A stretch of 64,000 nt of DNA from Lophium mytilinum. Its lineage: Eukaryota. The stretch's first letter is position 1. Every line of letters begins with the position of its first letter. The stretch spans positions 207,334 through 271,333 of the forward strand of contig MU004185.1 of the NCBI GenBank assembly GCA_010093605.1. The letters are read 5' to 3'. The translations under genes and the position numbers were made by a program. The notes beneath the pieces are model-generated. The model had not been told where the DNA came from and did not search any database. It saw only the letters and a list, made by a program, of their open reading frames with translations. This document shows positions 55,770 to 62,819 of this stretch, piece after piece.

Positions 55770-56807
55770 CTAGAGCTCACACACAACCGCTTCGTTCTGT
55801 AGCTCGTTGTTCGGCCCTCCCACCACTGCGGCGTTCACGAATGTCGTTACGCGCTCAGCTCTCAGCAACGCATCCCTACCACTGACAGCGGCGCGAAGCC
55901 TCGCAAAGACCATGCCAACCGCCACAAAACCCAGCGATACCCACCCAGCCCATTGGTTCGTGATCTCTTCCCAACGCCGCTGAGCCCCATCAAGCACGAC
56001 ATCTTCCCGTCCGTAAGCTACATGGATATGCCCGAAGACAACGAGCCGCGGTCTTACACCTGCTATCTCCTGAGCCAGGAATGGGCAACCCGCACGATGG
56101 AAATCCCTTCTATCCAAGTGCAGGCGTGGAGGCCCGTGGGTGATGAGGATGTCTGTATCTGAAGGTATTTTGTCGGACCAGACGTCTTTTTCGCGTGGAT
56201 ACTGGAATGCTGAGATGCCGTACTGTGGCGTCCATGGGCTGCCATAGATTCGTAAAGTGCGTTCCGAGGGGCCAGATGCATTTTGGGAGTCGAGGGGGAA
56301 TTTGAGTTCTATTGAGGAGTCTTGGAGGTAGTGCACATCGCTCCAATCGAGATCGGCCGCAGTCTTGCTTTGGCCATAACGTCGCTTGGGATTCTCCGTG
56401 AGGAACTTCCCGTCTAGGAGGACGTCATGGTTTCCCGCGATGAGGATTTTGTGGTCGTGCGGCTGTTCGGAGAGCCACGTGATCTGGGATTGCACTTCGT
56501 CGAAGCTTCCATTTTCCGTCAAGTCGCCGGCATGGATGAGGATATCTCCTGGGGGAAGATCTGGCTGCGTGTTGTGTGTATCGGATATGCACACAACTCG
56601 AATTACGGGTAATGAAGACTCCAAGGGAGGTCTTGGGGTTTGATGAAGAGGATGGAGTTTGAGCAGTGATGTAGCGAGGCCAGCAAGTCGCTGTCCCGGA
56701 AGCTTGATGGTTCGCACAGAAGTGGGATTTGAGGAGCTCATAGATACTGCGCAGCCAAGGAGAATAGCATAATGTTCGGAAGGAGCTGGAGGTGTTGTTG
56801 GATACAC
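55770..56807 (-). CDS. Calcineurin-like metallophosphoesterase (MPPED/239FB type); the start may be the downstream Met (MSSSNPTS)
   Basis: VCISDTHN, HAGDLT, IAGNHD, ITHGPP, FGHIH, FVNAA. Confidence 0.92.
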   Translation of the reverse strand: MYPTTPPAPSEHYAILLGCAVSMSSSNPTSVRTIKLPGQRLAGLATSLLKLHPLHQTPRPPLESSLPVIRVVCISDTHNTQPDLPPGDILIHAGDLTENGSFDEVQSQITWLSEQPHDHKILIAGNHDVLLDGKFLTENPKRRYGQSKTAADLDWSDVHYLQDSSIELKFPLDSQNASGPSERTLRIYGSPWTPQYGISAFQYPREKDVWSDKIPSDTDILITHGPPRLHLDRRDFHRAGCPFLAQEIAGVRPRLVVFGHIHVAYGREDVVLDGAQRRWEEITNQWAGWVSLGFVAVGMVFARLRAAVSGRDALLRAERVTTFVNAAVVGGPNNELQNEAVVCEL

Positions 56808-57068
56808 ATGTTCTTTCAGCCTCCACCCGCATGGAGGTGGCGCGGGTTTGAGAGGTGAAGGGGGACGTCGGCGCTTCGCTGTCCAGGGTCCCGATTCTTC
56901 ACCAAGGCTTGGCAGCGCTTATTTTCCTACCTAGACCTTCTACCAAATCAGTACAATCTATTAACCACTCCAACCTTATACTTCTACGCCGCACTATAAT
57001 CCGACTTCCTCGCCATGTCTAAAAATACGCATCGCGGCGTTGATACTCTGATCTCGAGCAGATTCATG

Positions 57069-57695
57069 CGGGCGGTCTCCGGGCAGGCCCCTCGAAAAGG
57101 CCCCTTCGTCACGTGCTCACATAAGCGAATTTTGTGAACATCATAAAACTCACGGGCCTACACTTAACACCTAAAAATTAATAGCTCTATTAATATCAAG
57201 CTACTCTATCTATCGCATTGCAGCCTTAGATCATTATTTTTACAAGTGCGCTTTGTGCCTAGGGCTAGGCCTAGGAGGTAGTAGGATCCTTACTAAGACG
57301 CTGATATTAATAATAACACATTCCTTAGTAATAGAGATGACGGGGCCATTACGCACAGCACGCTGGAAGGGGATCTGCACAAGATTTTATAGCAGATCCC
57401 GCCTATTCTACCTGCTCCGCGTACAAAGGATATCGGGAAACCACCCGTGGTGTAGATTTGAGGCGCCCGGCATTATCCTAAGTTGTACGTCGGCTTAGTG
57501 TTAATCTGTGGAACAGAGTCCTTCTCCTCTTATCCTACGCCTCTTTCTGTACACGAGCGTTGGTAGATTGCTTGGCAGAGATGGAAAATAAAGATAGGAG
57601 AGAGAGGGACGTGTTGATTTTGTGATGTTCATAAAATAAGCTAGCGAGCACGTGACGAAGGGGCCTTTTCGAGGGGCCTGCCCGGAGACTGCCCG
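57069..57695. mobile_element. Non-autonomous Mutator(MULE)-like DNA transposon / MITE family B, 627 bp, ~80-bp TIRs, 9-bp TSD AGATTCATG
   Basis: The first 50 nt, CGGGCGGTCTCCGGGCAGGCCCCTCGAAAAGGCCCCTTCGTCACGTGCTC, match the reverse complement of the right end at 49/50. AGATTCATG occurs at 57060-57068 and 57696-57704. Confidence 0.92.
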
Positions 57696-58347
57696 AGATT
57701 CATGATTTTCAAACACTGATATTCTTGGTTCTACCACACTGTAGATCACAGCACTTTCAGAGAACGTATATAGGAACCGTCCTTGCAGGGCAGCTTTTAT
57801 ATCTAGATACTTGAGGTTTCCTAGCTGAGTGAAACAAAAAAGAACATTGGAAGCGCTATAGACGCGTCATCCAATCCACACCTCTTCGTACGGCGCAGCA
57901 AACTTCTCCTGTTTCGCGAAGCAATCACGCCAGCCAAAACTTGCATAGAAAGACCTGCATCTGAGACATGGTATGCTTCAAGCCGATAAACAAGCGCTTG
58001 CTCAAATGTGCTTATATAGAGCCTGTTGAATCATAGACGAATGTTGGAATCGCGATATTATATCTATGACCGCTTTGTTGCTACCGAATGACAGTTTTCA
58101 CATCTTTGCAATAAATTCTAAAGCGAGCGAAACGTGGAACAACCTTTCTATTCTACTTCCCAGCTTCCCTTATTGGACACGTCACAGAGACTTGCCACTT
58201 CATCTGTTATCACGCTTCCCGGAGAGTCCCGAAGACACTATAAGTACGACAGCAGCTAGATCTTCCCATTCTCCCATCGATTCCGATTCGTAGAGCGGGT
58301 AAACTTTGCAGTCCCTTTAATATCTTCTTCTTCAACACACAGCGACC

Positions 58348-59301
58348 ATGTGCTTTGGAAAGTCCGGGTCTGGAACCGGCGGCCAAGCTCCTCGGACAGC
58401 AGCTCCTCAAACAGCAACAGCCCCTCGAACTGCAGCAGCCCCTCAGCCGATAGCTCCCCGGGGAGCTCCTAAACCTTCGCCGCGCGCAGGGAAGATAGGA
58501 AAGGGCGCTCAACAACCACTACAAATAGGACCCCCAACGGAAGCGACAATTCATATTCCCCGAAATCGACTAGATGCTCACGGAGTTCCGGTCCAGTTAA
58601 CATCTTACGACATCGACAGGCAGTCGTTAGAGAGCGCGTTAAGTTCGATGGCTCAATATTTGAATCAGAAGCGTGTTCATCTGATAGCCGTCACCGTAGG
58701 AGGTGCAGTGAACTGCCTCTACCTCCGTAGTAGGCAAACGACACATGACGTAGACATCTTCGGCTCGAACTTAGACACACCAGCTCGAATTCTGCTAGAT
58801 CAAGCAATGCAGTACGCTATTCAACAGTTCGAAGGACGACTAGGAACAGACTGGTTCAACACGGAAAATCAGATGTGGATGGGACCGAACACCCAAAAGG
58901 AGCTGACGGAACTGGCTATGCGGCAAGGAGCCGTGGTATTCGAGGAACCCGGGTTGAGGCTTCTGGCTGCGCCCTGGGAGTACGCATTTTCCGGAAAGGT
59001 TTAGAGGCTGCTCACTGGAGGTAGTCAGGTCCGATCGTACGACTTGGACGATGCTGTAAGCTATCTGGCGCAGCTAGTTCGCAGGAATGGCGATCGGCCG
59101 ATAGCACTGGGAATTGTTGAACGCTGGTCGAGCCGATTTAGCCATACAACAAGCAGAGACTTCCTAGTCAATAGGGTAGACCAAGAGTATCGAAAGCGCT
59201 TTGGCAAGCCGGGAATCGTACAAGTCGAGGGTAGTAGCCGTGGGGGAAATAATCTTCGTGGCGGGCGCAACACTCGTGGTAGTGGTCGTCTAAGAACGTA
59301 G
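58348..59301 (+). pseudogene. Nucleotidyltransferase-fold protein (DUF7582-like, AbiEii-like motif) with a single in-frame TAG at 59002-59004
   Basis: VTVGGAVNCLYLRSRQTTHDVDIF (GG..DxD), LGTDWFNTE, GLRLLAAPWEYAFSGKV*RLLTGGSQVRSYDLDDAVSYL; ORF 59044..59301 is in the same frame. Confidence 0.8.
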
Positions 59302-59375
59302 TGATTGTTGGTGCAGTGAGACTGGGGAATATTTTACTATGTCGGTATGGCGTTTTCAGGTTGAGACCAGACGTG

Positions 59376-60086
59376 TCATGTAAAATAAATGTGCGGTGTC
59401 CATAATAGAATGTTCATCTTCGAAAAATCGGGATCGGCCCTATCATCGTCTTTGTAGGTCAACGTTTCTCCTTCCTCTGTTGGGATTACTAATGTTGTAG
59501 CTAGAGCAGGGACTTTTTGCGCCCATTCGGGAACTTTCTCGTAGGGACGCTGTTCATGTGGAATATCCTTCGCTTTTTCGGCTTCCTCCATAGACAAAAG
59601 AGGACTAGCGCCACGGGTGAGACCAAGAGCAACCCTAGCATTGAAGGACTTGACGATGAGACAAGTGACGCCAGCTAGAAAGGCATACCGAGCAGGATCA
59701 TCATCTTGAGGGTCTACAATATCGCAGATTTTCCATTGCTCCTGCCTCCAAAGCCATTCCAGCATGTTTCGGTACGCAAATCTCTTATCGAGTACGAAAC
59801 ATTCGTATAGCCGATACAGCGTGTATAGCGAACTGTCTTCGAAAATGCCTTGAGGAGCAGCAAACTTACGTGCGGACACGGCGGACCAGTACTGCTCGGG
59901 ATTATCGAGAATTCTTCTAGGAGAAGGAGGAGGGAACACGGGATAATCTTCTAGAATGGGCTCATATAGTTCTGGCTCAGGCTCTTGCAAAATCCCCGGA
60001 CTACCTGCACTTTGGAAAGACGCAGAACGAGGTGGGCCCTTTCGGGCGCGAAGGAAGCGCTGGAATCTGCGAATAGCCGCCTTCAT
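59376..60086 (-). CDS. Uncharacterised fungal protein, convergent neighbour of the NTase-fold gene
   Basis: Intronless ~236-aa ORF: DSSLYTLYRLYE...W...DIVDPQDDDPARYAFLA...IVKSFNARVALGLTR...EKVPEWAQKVPAL...FSKMNILLWTPHIYFT. Confidence 0.8.
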   Translation of the reverse strand: MKAAIRRFQRFLRARKGPPRSASFQSAGSPGILQEPEPELYEPILEDYPVFPPPSPRRILDNPEQYWSAVSARKFAAPQGIFEDSSLYTLYRLYECFVLDKRFAYRNMLEWLWRQEQWKICDIVDPQDDDPARYAFLAGVTCLIVKSFNARVALGLTRGASPLLSMEEAEKAKDIPHEQRPYEKVPEWAQKVPALATTLVIPTEEGETLTYKDDDRADPDFSKMNILLWTPHIYFT

Positions 60087-60546
60087 CGTGGAAAGACAGT
60101 CAAAGTTTGGAGAGCTGAAAGGGGAGTGTTGCGCTTTTGACGTCCAATACCAGGGCCAGAGCACGAGGGAGTGTTGAGTAGAGAGCGTGAGGTTTGCTGA
60201 CACGATGGCCAAGGGGCACAGCCAAGAGAGCGTGTTTGCTAAACTACTCTATTAGATTGAAAGCCCTAGCGTCGGCAATACCCGGCGCTAAACCCATTCC
60301 TGGCAGCGCTCTGATTGACACTCCTCACTTAAACTCACCCACACCACAAAATTCAGTCCTCGACTCGAGCTCAAGAACCTTCGTGAAAGTTCCTCCAGCC
60401 CACAACAGAACTTCCAGCTTAAGCAAAATAGCCAGAGGAAGTTGCTAAAGACGCCAACGAAGAAGCCGCCGAAGATACCACCGCAGATACCGCTGAAGCA
60501 ACAGCTACTTTAAACCTCTCCAAGCTCCTCTCTTCAAACCAGCAGA

Positions 60547-61386
60547 ATGCAGAGCCAGACTCAAGAGCCTCCGCAGAAGCGCAGGAAACTCGAGCACGAT
60601 GCTGAAGTTTTCCACAATGTCGCTGAGGAAACCGCTGAGAAAGCAGGAGCTGAATCTCTCTCTTTCTTCAGCCTTCCCGGAGAGATACGAAACAAAATCT
60701 ACGACAACATCTTCCAAGATAAAGACTACAAAATTCATCTTCCCCAGTTCGTTCTTGGTTCGAATACACACCGCCATCGCCCTCTCCCTCAGCTCACCAG
60801 TCCGGACGGGATCTTCGTTCCTCATCACGTCCGCGACTACTACGCCCTCTTAGCTGTGAACCGTCAAATGCGCAAGGAAGTCGCCTCGCTCATCTTCAGC
60901 AATCACCTCCACCTCTCTATCGAGACCCCTAGTGGGCTCAAGGACGTTGCGCAAAATGTCGGGAACCTAGGCCTATCGTACATTCGGCATCTGGCTCTCG
61001 ACTGGTACACAAGCGGATACCTATTCTTCAACCTGAAGAAAGAGGCAGGTCTTTCCATATCCTCCTTGCTGCAAAGATTCACTCAGCTGAAGACGGTCGT
61101 CATCTCGGTGGATTGCCAGTTCACGCCACGCTTCACCAAAGCTGCTGCGTTTGTCGAGGACAATGGCTTGCAGGAGCTGCGTGCAGCCGGGATCGAGGTC
61201 TCAATTTTGGGGCGCTGGGATCCCTACCTCATTGAAGGAGAAGGGTGGGGGCAGAGTATGTTCGAAACTTTTACAGAATGGCATGCCGAAGTTTGTGAGA
61301 TTAGGCGTAGGGATCCAGGGTGCCCTCCGCCTCAAGCATCGCAAAAGAAGAGGAAAGCGGAGAGAGCCAATTTATCTTGCGACTAG
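60547..61386 (+). CDS. F-box-like orphan family member 2
   Basis: SFFSLPGEIRNKIYDNIF...IFVPHH..YALLAVNRQMRKEVASLIFS...FVEDNGLQELRAAGIEV. Confidence 0.75.
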   Translation: MQSQTQEPPQKRRKLEHDAEVFHNVAEETAEKAGAESLSFFSLPGEIRNKIYDNIFQDKDYKIHLPQFVLGSNTHRHRPLPQLTSPDGIFVPHHVRDYYALLAVNRQMRKEVASLIFSNHLHLSIETPSGLKDVAQNVGNLGLSYIRHLALDWYTSGYLFFNLKKEAGLSISSLLQRFTQLKTVVISVDCQFTPRFTKAAAFVEDNGLQELRAAGIEVSILGRWDPYLIEGEGWGQSMFETFTEWHAEVCEIRRRDPGCPPPQASQKKRKAERANLSCD

Positions 61387-62063: not shown

Positions 62064-62819
62064 TCATTGTACTCCTCTCATAGCCTCCACCACATCTCTC
62101 CACCACTGCTTCGCCTCGTCATCATACTTATCCTCATCCTCGCTGCACACATGGAACCGCATCTTTACCCCCTTCGTCTTGAACTCCCTCATTCTGTACC
62201 TCTCTACAAACTTGCCTGGCTCCAGGCGCCTGGGCCCCAGCGTACTATGCCTCGCACTAACATTGATCTTGACATCCCTCAACCGCTCGAACTGCCCTAA
62301 CAACGTCGACTCTCCCGGAAATCCTGACGCCGGGCGTCTCCAAAGCCATGACCAATCGATACCCAGATGGTGAATGTGCGCACGGCCGAAAGAACCGATG
62401 TTAGAGGATAGGTTATGGAGCGCGGCGTAGGTTTTGAGGGTAAGAAAGAGATAAGACCTATAGATGAGGGAGGCGACTTCGAGACGTGTCCGGTGATTGA
62501 TGGCTAGCAGTGCGAAGTGAGGTTCCGGAGGGTGAGGGACGAACACAGTGTCGAAGGATACGGGGCAGGGGATATAACGCCCCCGTGAGGACCTTGAGAA
62601 GATGTTAGTATCACCGAGCCAGATCCAGTATTGGTGGCCTGCTAGACAGTGCGCGTAGATTAAGTTGCGGAGTTCGCCTGGGAGGTCGAGGAAGCGGAAT
62701 GGCTGAGAGTTTGGAGACGCTGCTGAAGCTGATTGGGTAGTTAGCTCCTGCGTTGTTCCTGCAGACGCCTTTTGAAGAGGTTCGTTGAAATCGAGTTCGC
62801 TTCGCATGAGAGGATTCAT
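62064..62819 (-). CDS. F-box-like orphan family member 3
   Basis: FRFLDLPGELRNLIYAHCL...VFVPHP..FALLAINHRTRLEVASLIY...FVERYRMREFKTKGVKM. Confidence 0.75.
   Translation of the reverse strand: MNPLMRSELDFNEPLQKASAGTTQELTTQSASAASPNSQPFRFLDLPGELRNLIYAHCLAGHQYWIWLGDTNIFSRSSRGRYIPCPVSFDTVFVPHPPEPHFALLAINHRTRLEVASLIYRSYLFLTLKTYAALHNLSSNIGSFGRAHIHHLGIDWSWLWRRPASGFPGESTLLGQFERLRDVKINVSARHSTLGPRRLEPGKFVERYRMREFKTKGVKMRFHVCSEDEDKYDDEAKQWWRDVVEAMRGVQ

Follow-up and report, generated by a model that had tools for sequence, protein, structure and literature searches.

A conserved three-gene unit of filamentous ascomycetes that includes a nucleotidyltransferase akin to bacterial MenT and AbiEii toxins

Bacterial nucleotidyltransferases (NTases) of the MenT and AbiEii types are the best-matching characterised counterparts of one of the genes analysed here. 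The toxins MenT1 and MenT3 of Mycobacterium tuberculosis extend tRNA acceptor stems and are neutralised by auto-phosphorylation that their antitoxins, MenA1 and MenA3, induce (PMC11375011, 2026 preprint); the phosphoacceptor, T39 in MenT1 and S78 in MenT3, lies just upstream of the DxD motif (PMC11375011). The highly conserved residues of MenT1 given there are T39, D41 (of D41xD43), K137 and D152 (Arrowsmith et al. 2024, PMC11375011). AbiEii was defined by hG[GS]x15DhD with an Arg, by KLxAaxxR as motif III and by +DxxD as motif IV in Dy et al. 2014 (PMC3985639), a paper that also describes the DUF1814 homologues of fungi as lacking linkage to antitoxin genes. A 2026 preprint unites MenT, AbiEii, Pb27, ANT(2'') and JHP933 in one DUF1814 superfamily, and the MenT/AbiE papers that we consulted touch on fungal homologues only briefly, describing them as unlinked to antitoxins. 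Here we describe a locus of the fungus Lophium mytilinum, contained in a stretch of 64,000 nucleotides (nt) that we call the window (contig MU004185.1 of assembly GCA_010093605.1, positions 207,334 to 271,333 of the forward strand). A sequence-only reading had singled out two intronless convergent genes in it, an NTase-fold gene and an uncharacterised partner, as a candidate toxin/antitoxin-like system. Our literature searches found no paper on "DUF7582", the family of this NTase, one irrelevant paper on "DUF2204", a related family, and none describing the three-gene cluster reported below.

Our results show that the conserved unit in many Pezizomycotina consists of three genes, encoding a phosphodiesterase, the NTase and the partner, and not of a pair. 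In the open reading frame (ORF) map of the window NTase and partner lie on opposite strands, tail to tail, and the spacing of about 75 bp given earlier was confirmed, the stop codons being 74 nt apart. Among 22 metagenome loci, which were fetched with the partner profile and searched with profiles and tblastn, the NTase adjoins the partner in 11: seven are convergent, tail to tail as in the window (L001, L002, L004, L007, L009, L010, L020), and four are divergent, head to head, with a divergent NTase subfamily (L014, L015, L017, L018). The NTase is absent from five loci in spite of enough flanking DNA (L003, L005, L008, L011, L021), and six are too short or cut to judge (L006, L012, L013, L016, L019, L022). 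NTase and partner also carry consecutive locus tags in seven named sources: Arachnomyces sp., Onygenales sp. PD_12, Sphaceloma murrayae, Talaromyces atroroseus, Claviceps africana, Chaetothyriales sp. CBS 134916 and Chaenotheca gracillima. Homologues of the phosphodiesterase occur in 10 of the same 22 loci. Five of these (L002, L004, L007, L010, L020) reproduce the layout of the window, with phosphodiesterase and NTase head to head and NTase and partner tail to tail, and two others have the order NTase, partner, phosphodiesterase (L017, L018). Three genes in a row are further found in Sphaceloma (CAC42_6480/81/82), Claviceps africana (E4U42_006995/94/93) and Chaetothyriales CBS 134916 (g2978/77/76). 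Linkage extends over at least four classes of Pezizomycotina and two gene orders, and no fourth recurrent gene family was found beside the trio across the metagenome loci. The module proposed from the sequence stands as far as the adjacency of its two members goes, but its size does not, the third member being an MPPED2-type phosphodiesterase. Because partner and phosphodiesterase persist where the NTase is gone, the latter appears to be the dispensable member of the trio, and the broken NTase gene of this strain, described below, fits such dispensability.

The phosphodiesterase gene had been overlooked as a part of the conserved unit. Its product matches the Pfam family Metallophos (PF00149) with 58.2 bits (cut-off 21.5) and rat MPPED2 (PDB 3rl4) with E 3.1e-36 over residues 39-245. 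The phosphodiesterase of Mytilinidion shows 76-80% identity. It also matches PDC-S10, a PADLOC model of a candidate phage-defence system (E 1.6e-53, 179 bits); this may reflect only the breadth of a family shared by bacteria and eukaryotes, although it is worth noting beside a toxin-like NTase. In the public model P0162 of Chaetothyriales sp. CBS 134920, the partner (N-terminal 154 residues) is fused to a Metallophos phosphodiesterase, probably because two adjacent same-strand genes were merged in annotation. Apparent extra NTases in L011, L012 and L022, suggested by ORF clustering, were discarded, since they are ORFs on the antisense strand of the partner gene and contain no NTase domain.

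The NTase of the window matches the Pfam family DUF7582 (PF24483) with 60 bits (cut-off 27, E 2.5e-16) over residues 91-287, a stretch that spans an in-frame TAG. The same family is matched by 52 of the 57 sequences of our NTase alignment, which comprises the window protein and 56 homologues and underlies all motif counts given here. Weak matches to other NTase families are widespread among the 57 members (DUF2204 in 56, DUF6036 in 38), and DUF7582 and DUF2204 are the only Pfam matches of the window protein itself at E<=1. An alignment-based AlphaFold2 model (mean predicted local distance difference test, pLDDT, 85.8; predicted template modelling score, pTM, 0.74), confident over residues 70-290, bears out the NTase fold read from the sequence, with MenT1, Pb27, MenT4, ANT(2'') and TglT as the closest solved structures. 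These come from a structure-only VIA search of 48,161 chains, which returned MenT1 (8an4_A; Z 8.5, 163 residues, root mean square deviation 3.9), the Pb27-like 5uvd (Z 7.9, 175 residues), MenT4 (Z 7.2), ANT(2'') (Z 7.0), TglT/MenT3 (Z 6.7), the JHP933-like Helicobacter NTase 4ok0 (Z 6.3), TM1012 (PDB 2ewr; Z 6.0), AbiEi (Z 5.5) and LnuA (Z 5.3). A Z of about 8 is borderline and can arise by chance, yet these nine best matches are almost exactly the set that the preprint assigns to the DUF1814 superfamily. A sequence-profile search of the PDB gave a CCA-adding enzyme as its sole match, which was non-significant (E 0.44), and the NTase had no match in PADLOC.

The catalytic motif residues are kept across the family. 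G118 and G119 are present in all 57 sequences and VGG is followed after 14 residues by DVD, with R129 in 55, D134 in 56 and D136 in 55 of them. T132, two residues before D134, is invariant, as is D232-x-x-D235, and K217, R220 and R229 are each found in 56. R229 stands three positions before D232, as against the basic residue directly before the first Asp in the +DxxD pentad. The motifs VGGAV...RQTTHDVD, DWFN and K-x2-R...YDLDDA, described earlier from the window alone, are present, and they are invariant or nearly so across the family. The counterparts of MenT1 T39, D41, K137 and D152 in this pattern are T132 (57/57), D134 (56/57), K217 (56/57) and D235 (57/57), the pairing of T132 with T39 being one of motif spacing (T39-R40-D41) rather than of residue-level superposition. 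DUF7582 NTases branch off from the DUF2204/MenT/AbiEii-like minimal NTases of bacteria as a eukaryotic lineage, in which the catalytic motifs are retained.

The ends of the protein are less uniform than its core. The low-complexity TAAPQ/TAPRT N-terminus noted earlier is present in the Lophium protein. Of the 57 sequences, 42 begin with MG, 35 of these having a Cys at positions 3-6, and the pattern MGxxx[S/T/C] describes 39. Since a start of the MG-C...S/T type is the pattern of N-myristoylated and palmitoylated proteins, most homologues having it, a membrane tether of the NTase is likely. In three of the four loci with head-to-head genes (L014, L015, L018), the minus-strand NTase occupies two frames, with the break each time at one profile position, around 140, which suggests a conserved intron in the divergent subfamily; the window NTase and most others are, in contrast, single-exon.

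Relatives of the NTase are also present in bacteria. A scan of one genome per prokaryote species returned three loci with such relatives (L023-L025), all in Anaerolineae/Chloroflexota. A bacterial NTase of 176 amino acids (aa) passes the DUF2204 threshold with 31.4 bits, and the bacterial DUF2204 NTase aligns with the fungal profile with an hhalign probability of 97.8% (E 7e-13, 140 columns); its motif III region reads KLSAWR. In two loci from metagenome-assembled genomes of Anaerolineae (2956-4811 in L023, 2992-3865 in L024), the 176-aa NTase is followed by an overlapping 118-aa ORF that is conserved between the loci and belongs to no family. In L023 this pair is directly beside a Phd/YefM-PIN pair. 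The bacterial NTase/118-aa pair looks like an undescribed toxin-antitoxin-like operon. Its 118-aa ORF and the fungal partner are dissimilar (hhalign probability 0.5%).

The partner family is large and well conserved, and it resembles nothing that we searched. Homologues numbered 112 in a first search, and a profile search of 1.84 billion representatives gave 554 clusters at E<=0.001; 387 of them reached 1e-10 or better. The mean column identity of 43% in an alignment of 86 sequences places the partner among the best conserved proteins of the locus, and its invariant polar residues include R92, Y94, E95, R106, R133, N149, R158 and H232. The N-terminus is variable and basic: over 81 full-length sequences, residues 1-25 contain on average 5.5 Lys and Arg as against 1.6 Asp and Glu. 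The AlphaFold2 model (pLDDT 91.1, pTM 0.82) is mostly helical, and this agrees, together with a length of 236 aa and the lack of a match in Pfam and NCBIfam, with the earlier description of a helical protein of about that size without recognisable motif. All 86 family members gave only stray weak matches in Pfam. Searches of the PDB by sequence profile (best E 0.61) and by Foldseek with the model (best E 0.73), a wide VIA search (best Z 4.4), BFVD (best E 0.30), the ESM Atlas (no usable match; scores at most 0.82, TM at most 0.34) and PADLOC (none) did not connect it to a described protein. No winged helix-turn-helix (wHTH) or antitoxin fold was among its structure matches. By the structure searches and hhalign, the partner is unrelated to any known antitoxin. 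Nor was an antitoxin of a known class (COG5340/COG4861 wHTH, MenA1-like) found adjacent to the NTase in one operon. A HEPN-like partner, by analogy with MNT-HEPN systems, was rejected for want of an Rx4-6H motif in the alignment and of a HEPN fold among the structure matches, and we found no support for the label "DNA-binding protein" that some database records of partner homologues bear. A complex prediction for the pair of Aulographum hederae (P0013 20-250 with P0097 28-226) gave an ipSAE of 0.00 twice with alignments unused, a result that speaks neither for nor against binding.

The three genes seem to have a common history. Pairwise distances of NTase and partner are correlated over 20 pairs, some of which may be wrongly matched (Spearman 0.73, a value reached in 0 of 2000 permutations), although genomes that are related would be correlated in this way even if the genes were uncoupled. 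Maximum-likelihood trees, built quickly from named sequences (24 NTases, 32 partners and 32 phosphodiesterases), mostly follow the fungal classes for all three genes, and for this reason the unit is largely vertically inherited. Two placements depart from the classes in every tree: the Dothideomycete Sphaceloma falls inside a Sordariomycete clade (Shimodaira-Hasegawa-like approximate likelihood-ratio test, SH-aLRT, 99, 95 and 99 for NTase, partner and phosphodiesterase), and a Talaromyces falls inside the Hypocreales (96, 88 and 99), the species in the phosphodiesterase tree being T. rugulosus and not T. atroroseus. An approximately unbiased (AU) test rejects an NTase tree in which eight Sordariomycete rows exclude Sphaceloma and Talaromyces (p 0.017), with the group picked after inspection of the tree. 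The shared misplacements reflect either transfer of the cassette as a unit between classes or a common old history of duplication and loss; since both imply it, the genes travel together. Co-occurrence and co-phylogeny of the pair had been named in the sequence-only reading as points to survey. The second is found, in that NTase and partner trees agree; the first is partial, as the partner also occurs without the NTase.

In the strain analysed, the NTase gene has one nonsense codon and the partner gene is intact, as had been read from the sequence. The premature stop is true, and the public gene model hides it inside an implausible intron. The public Lophium mytilinum protein P0003 has 302 aa, is 95% identical over the whole of the window NTase, and has a single Asp in place of the 16 residues EYAFSGKV*RLLTGGS; excising exactly the 45-nt segment listed in Table 1 from the reading frame reproduces it. 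The annotated intron is implausible because its splicing would delete the catalytic K217 and the conserved R220. It would also take away Y212 (kept in 56 of 57 NTases) and F214 (52 of 57), and none of the 56 homologues has a gap over residues 211-226. At the column of the TAG these homologues have Ser (23), Asn (19), Gln (6), Asp (3), Ala (2) or Arg, His and Gly (one each), and none has Trp. The TAG may have arisen by a single C-to-T change in a Gln codon. A product ending at the TAG would be missing half of the active site together with all of the C-terminal helical part. The inactivation is probably recent, since NTase and partner of Lophium have similar identities to their orthologues (62%/62% to Onygenales sp. 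PD_12, 58%/57% to Aulographum). The loss of the putative toxin ahead of its partner had been taken as a sign of an addiction module, but one nonsense codon in one strain is not evidence of a decay order.

The TAG might still be harmless if it were spliced out with the 45-nt segment, edited from adenosine to inosine (UAG to UGG, in the sexual stage) or read through, which we consider very improbable. The segment does have GT...AG ends and a CTCAC branch-like site and its removal keeps the frame, the remainder of the reading frame has no further damage, and Fusarium graminearum is known to restore premature UAG codons by such editing (PMC10776026). But splicing would remove two residues conserved in 56 of 57 sequences from a region where no homologue is gapped. 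Editing of the TAG is unlikely, given that no homologue has Trp at its column, that the local RNA fold is no more stable than that of shuffled sequence (z 0.73), and that the editing machinery is reported to have originated in Sordariomycetes and independently in Pezizomycetes, not in Dothideomycetes (PMC10776026). Three public runs, which come from two studies, have contigs identical to window positions 58300-60150, TAG included, and free of any junction at the ends of the segment; two of the three runs may be the assembly's own source. Run X1 (2014, other study), which is only guessed to be RNA, gave a contig of 2195 nt that is collinear with the genome over about 58007-60201, an interval comprising no more than the convergent pair and the regions upstream of each gene. 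Should X1 be RNA, then the two genes are both transcribed, their 3' ends overlap, and the sole transcript-like contig carries the TAG and leaves the 45-nt segment unspliced.

Taken together, we hold with moderate confidence that the three genes form a nucleotidyl-transfer module, conserved in filamentous ascomycetes and with bacterial toxins in its ancestry, and that its NTase was recently inactivated in this strain. By analogy with characterised relatives, the NTase, probably tethered to the membrane through N-terminal acylation, would use a nucleoside triphosphate and Mg2+ to transfer a nucleotide onto an acceptor hydroxyl. The likeliest acceptor would be an RNA or tRNA 3' end as for MenT, the tRNA 3' end being the acceptor of the closest characterised relatives (PMC11375011, 2026 preprint). 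The partner would probably control the NTase, in the role of the MenA and AbiEi antitoxins though without kinship to them, and may act through the invariant T132, in the way MenT1 is controlled through its phosphoacceptor T39. The phosphodiesterase would probably remove or degrade the nucleotidylated product by phosphodiester cleavage. The nonsense codon between the Lys and the Arg of motif III has knocked out the NTase of this strain, with partner and phosphodiesterase intact. A bolder version, in which the trio descends from bacterial MenT/AbiEii-type NTase toxin systems and is now a three-part conflict or immunity cassette made of a membrane-tethered effector that nucleotidylates tRNA or RNA, a neutraliser of novel fold and a phosphodiesterase "eraser" that resets it, occasionally transferred between classes as a unit and prone to losing its effector first, as in this strain, seems to us improbable.

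Several observations weigh against the module as we propose it. What is shown is the fold, the motif set of the family, the nonsense codon, the linkage of the three genes in two arrangements and the anomalies that their trees have in common; the activities, the substrate and any binding within the trio are proposals by analogy. The likeness to AbiEii/MenT claimed from the sequence holds for the fold and for motifs I and II, but not for the AbiEii Pfam model PF08843, which had no match to the window NTase at E<=1 and is not among the 25 families listed of the 34 matched by the 57 family members. Motif III is K-x2-R-L-L and not KLxAaxxR. All Foldseek matches of the NTase model in the PDB were weaker than E 0.001, those to solved members of the DUF1814 superfamily lying between E 0.065 and 0.98, with 5uvd (E 0.065) and MenT1 in the MenAT1 complex (E 0.093) as the best rows; the borderline VIA scores, the spacing-based place of T132, the doubtful pairs in the distance correlation and the late choice of the AU group, all described above, belong to the same side. 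The Lophium NTase begins with MCFG, as against MG in most homologues, and P0006 is the only other with this start. As for linkage, the partner lacks an adjacent NTase in 5 of 16 informative metagenome loci, phosphodiesterase and partner are next to each other by locus tag, without an intervening gene, in Apiospora rasikravindrae, Diaporthe citri and Hirsutella minnesotensis, and in Arachnomyces and Helicocarpus the phosphodiesterase homologue that matches best does not share a contig with the NTase. Since the partner persists beside the phosphodiesterase without the NTase, it must have a role that is independent of the latter.

Other explanations can be offered for the same data. The trio might harbour a toxin-antidote element, in which the NTase is poisonous to the cell, for instance through a block of tRNA 3' ends, the partner neutralises it, persistence is ensured by addiction, meiotic drive, allorecognition or defence, and the phosphodiesterase is a passenger or helper. 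The closest structures include the proven toxins MenT1, MenT4 and TglT, the closest bacterial sequence relatives belong to operons of two overlapping genes, one such operon lying next to a Phd/PIN pair, and NTase and partner stay tightly linked even where their orientation has changed. Several lineages have kept the partner after the NTase went, it is the NTase that is broken here, named matches are patchy with no classic model species among them, and the placements of Sphaceloma and Talaromyces, in conflict with the fungal classes, could be transfers. Still, most of each tree is congruent with the classes, the same structural group holds the non-toxins Pb27, ANT(2'') and LnuA, and no repeats or mobile-element genes bound the unit, save one transposable element in the promoter region. 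The pair is not an operon, being convergently transcribed. The strong conservation of the partner (43%) and its persistence beside the phosphodiesterase without the NTase suggest a cellular function rather than that of a pure antidote. A true toxin-antidote system, like the meiotic drive and allorecognition also suggested from the sequence, is possible but in our view unlikely: largely class-congruent trees, strong partner conservation and the presence of a third gene speak less for a plain selfish element of two genes than for a regulated module of the cell.

Alternatively, the cluster could serve to modify a small molecule, with the NTase nucleotidylating a metabolite or xenobiotic in the manner of ANT(2'') and LnuA and the other two proteins acting on the same compound. 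Conserved fungal gene clusters are typically metabolic, both enzymes are among the fold matches of the NTase (Z 7.0 and 5.3), and the invariant polar residues of the partner (R92, E95, R106, R133, N149, R158, H232) would suit an enzyme or a ligand binder. However, no transporter, transcription factor, other metabolic gene or fourth family is conserved with the trio, and the motif set, with the Thr before DxD and the DxxD, is nearer to the MenT/AbiEii pattern, so that this explanation is rather doubtful. Equally doubtful is inherited synteny without functional coupling, in which the three genes have simply not yet been separated. It would account for trees that largely follow the fungal classes, for species in which the phosphodiesterase is unlinked and for loci in which the NTase is missing (5/16). 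Yet the linkage holds across at least four classes of Pezizomycotina and has survived rearrangement to a second gene order (L014, L015, L017, L018), and the same misplacement of Sphaceloma recurs in all three gene trees.

The surroundings of the three genes are summarised in Table 1. The insertion between the phosphodiesterase and NTase genes fits a Mutator-like miniature inverted-repeat transposable element (MITE). The element announced upstream of the pair is real, with its 50-nt arms and a 9-bp target-site duplication; it is from the length of that duplication alone (9-11 bp) that we take it to belong to the Mutator superfamily. Its arm sequence occurs only at this element within the window, and it may affect the expression of both flanking genes. 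The two F-box-like genes are indeed paralogues (33% identity, E 1e-32), but they do not flank the pair, both lying on the same downstream side. One of them matches F-box-like_2 with 26.9 bits (cut-off 21.6), and neither is a conserved neighbour in the metagenome loci.

Table 1. Features of the Lophium mytilinum locus, in window coordinates.
Feature	Position	Strand	Remarks
MPPED2-type metallophosphodiesterase gene	55770-56741	-	323 aa; divergent from NTase gene
MITE-like insertion, direct repeats included	57060-57704		between phosphodiesterase and NTase genes
MITE-like element	57069-57695		627 bp; contains only a 53-aa ORF
Inverted arms of MITE-like element	57069-57118 and 57646-57695		50 nt, 98% complementary
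Direct repeat AGATTCATG	57060-57068 and 57696-57704		9 bp, perfect; flanks MITE-like element
DUF7582 NTase gene	58348-59301	+	317 codons, one in-frame TAG; MenT/AbiEii-like NTase fold
Ala/Pro-rich N-terminal repeats of NTase	58348-58530	+	largely specific to the Lophium protein (57-sequence alignment)
GT...AG segment modelled as intron	58980-59024	+	45 nt; removes residues 211-226, including Y212, F214, K217, R220
In-frame TAG	59002-59004	+	codon 219, between conserved K217 and R220
Arg/Gly-rich C-terminal tail of NTase	59230-59298	+	absent from most homologues
Terminal stop codon of NTase gene	59299-59301	+	TAG; same frame after the internal TAG
Spacer between convergent stop codons	59302-59375		74 nt
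Partner gene	59376-60086	-	236 aa, uninterrupted, mostly helical, no Pfam model; reads from 60086 down
Stop codon of partner gene	59376-59378	-	
F-box-like/DUF7730 paralogue	60547-61386	+	weak DUF7730/2EXR match
F-box-like/DUF7730 paralogue	62064-62819	-	weak DUF7730/2EXR match

Overall, these results show a fungal branch of the MenT/AbiEii structural group, different from the fungal DUF1814 homologues, that is tightly linked to two other genes across several fungal classes. They offer an entry point to the question of whether toxin-type NTases keep a regulated, possibly harmful activity in eukaryotes, to the role of the partner family, and to a possible reversal of nucleotidylation by an MPPED-type phosphodiesterase.

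The phosphodiesterase is a clear homologue of mammalian MPPED2 (3rl4), and we know of no link between MPPED-type enzymes and an NTase, a point on which no search was made. Pb27, the antigenic NTase-like protein of Paracoccidioides brasiliensis (5uvd), is also fungal, shares the structural neighbourhood of our NTase and gave the best Foldseek row, but identity is only 14-16% and it belongs to the DUF1814 superfamily, not to DUF7582. The fungal DUF1814 homologues are unlinked to antitoxin genes according to Dy et al. 2014, whereas DUF7582 is a different fungal family that is linked to a conserved neighbour. AbiEii, which with AbiEi (DUF1814) forms an abortive infection system in Streptococcus agalactiae, shares motifs I and II with a long spacer and an internal Arg, the Lys and Arg of motif III and the acidic DxxD; it differs in that the fungal NTase has no PF08843 match and has K-x2-R instead of KLxAaxxR. 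The bacterial DUF2204 NTases are the closest non-fungal sequence relatives, with the same VGGAV, THDVDVF, DWLN and K...R...DxxD, yet at 176 aa they have neither the N-terminal nor the C-terminal helical extension of the fungal protein. The fungal NTase has in common with MenT1 and MenT3 the fold and a conserved neighbour gene; its family also has GG...T-x-D-x-D, a downstream Lys and DxxD, and the invariant Thr lies two residues before the first Asp as T39 does before D41 in MenT1. In contrast to these toxins, the fungal gene is eukaryotic, monocistronic and convergent with its neighbour, its 236-aa partner has no recognised fold and is unrelated to MenA1 and to wHTH antitoxins, the NTase itself has an acylation-like N-terminal signal and a disordered extension, and a phosphodiesterase is a third linked gene.

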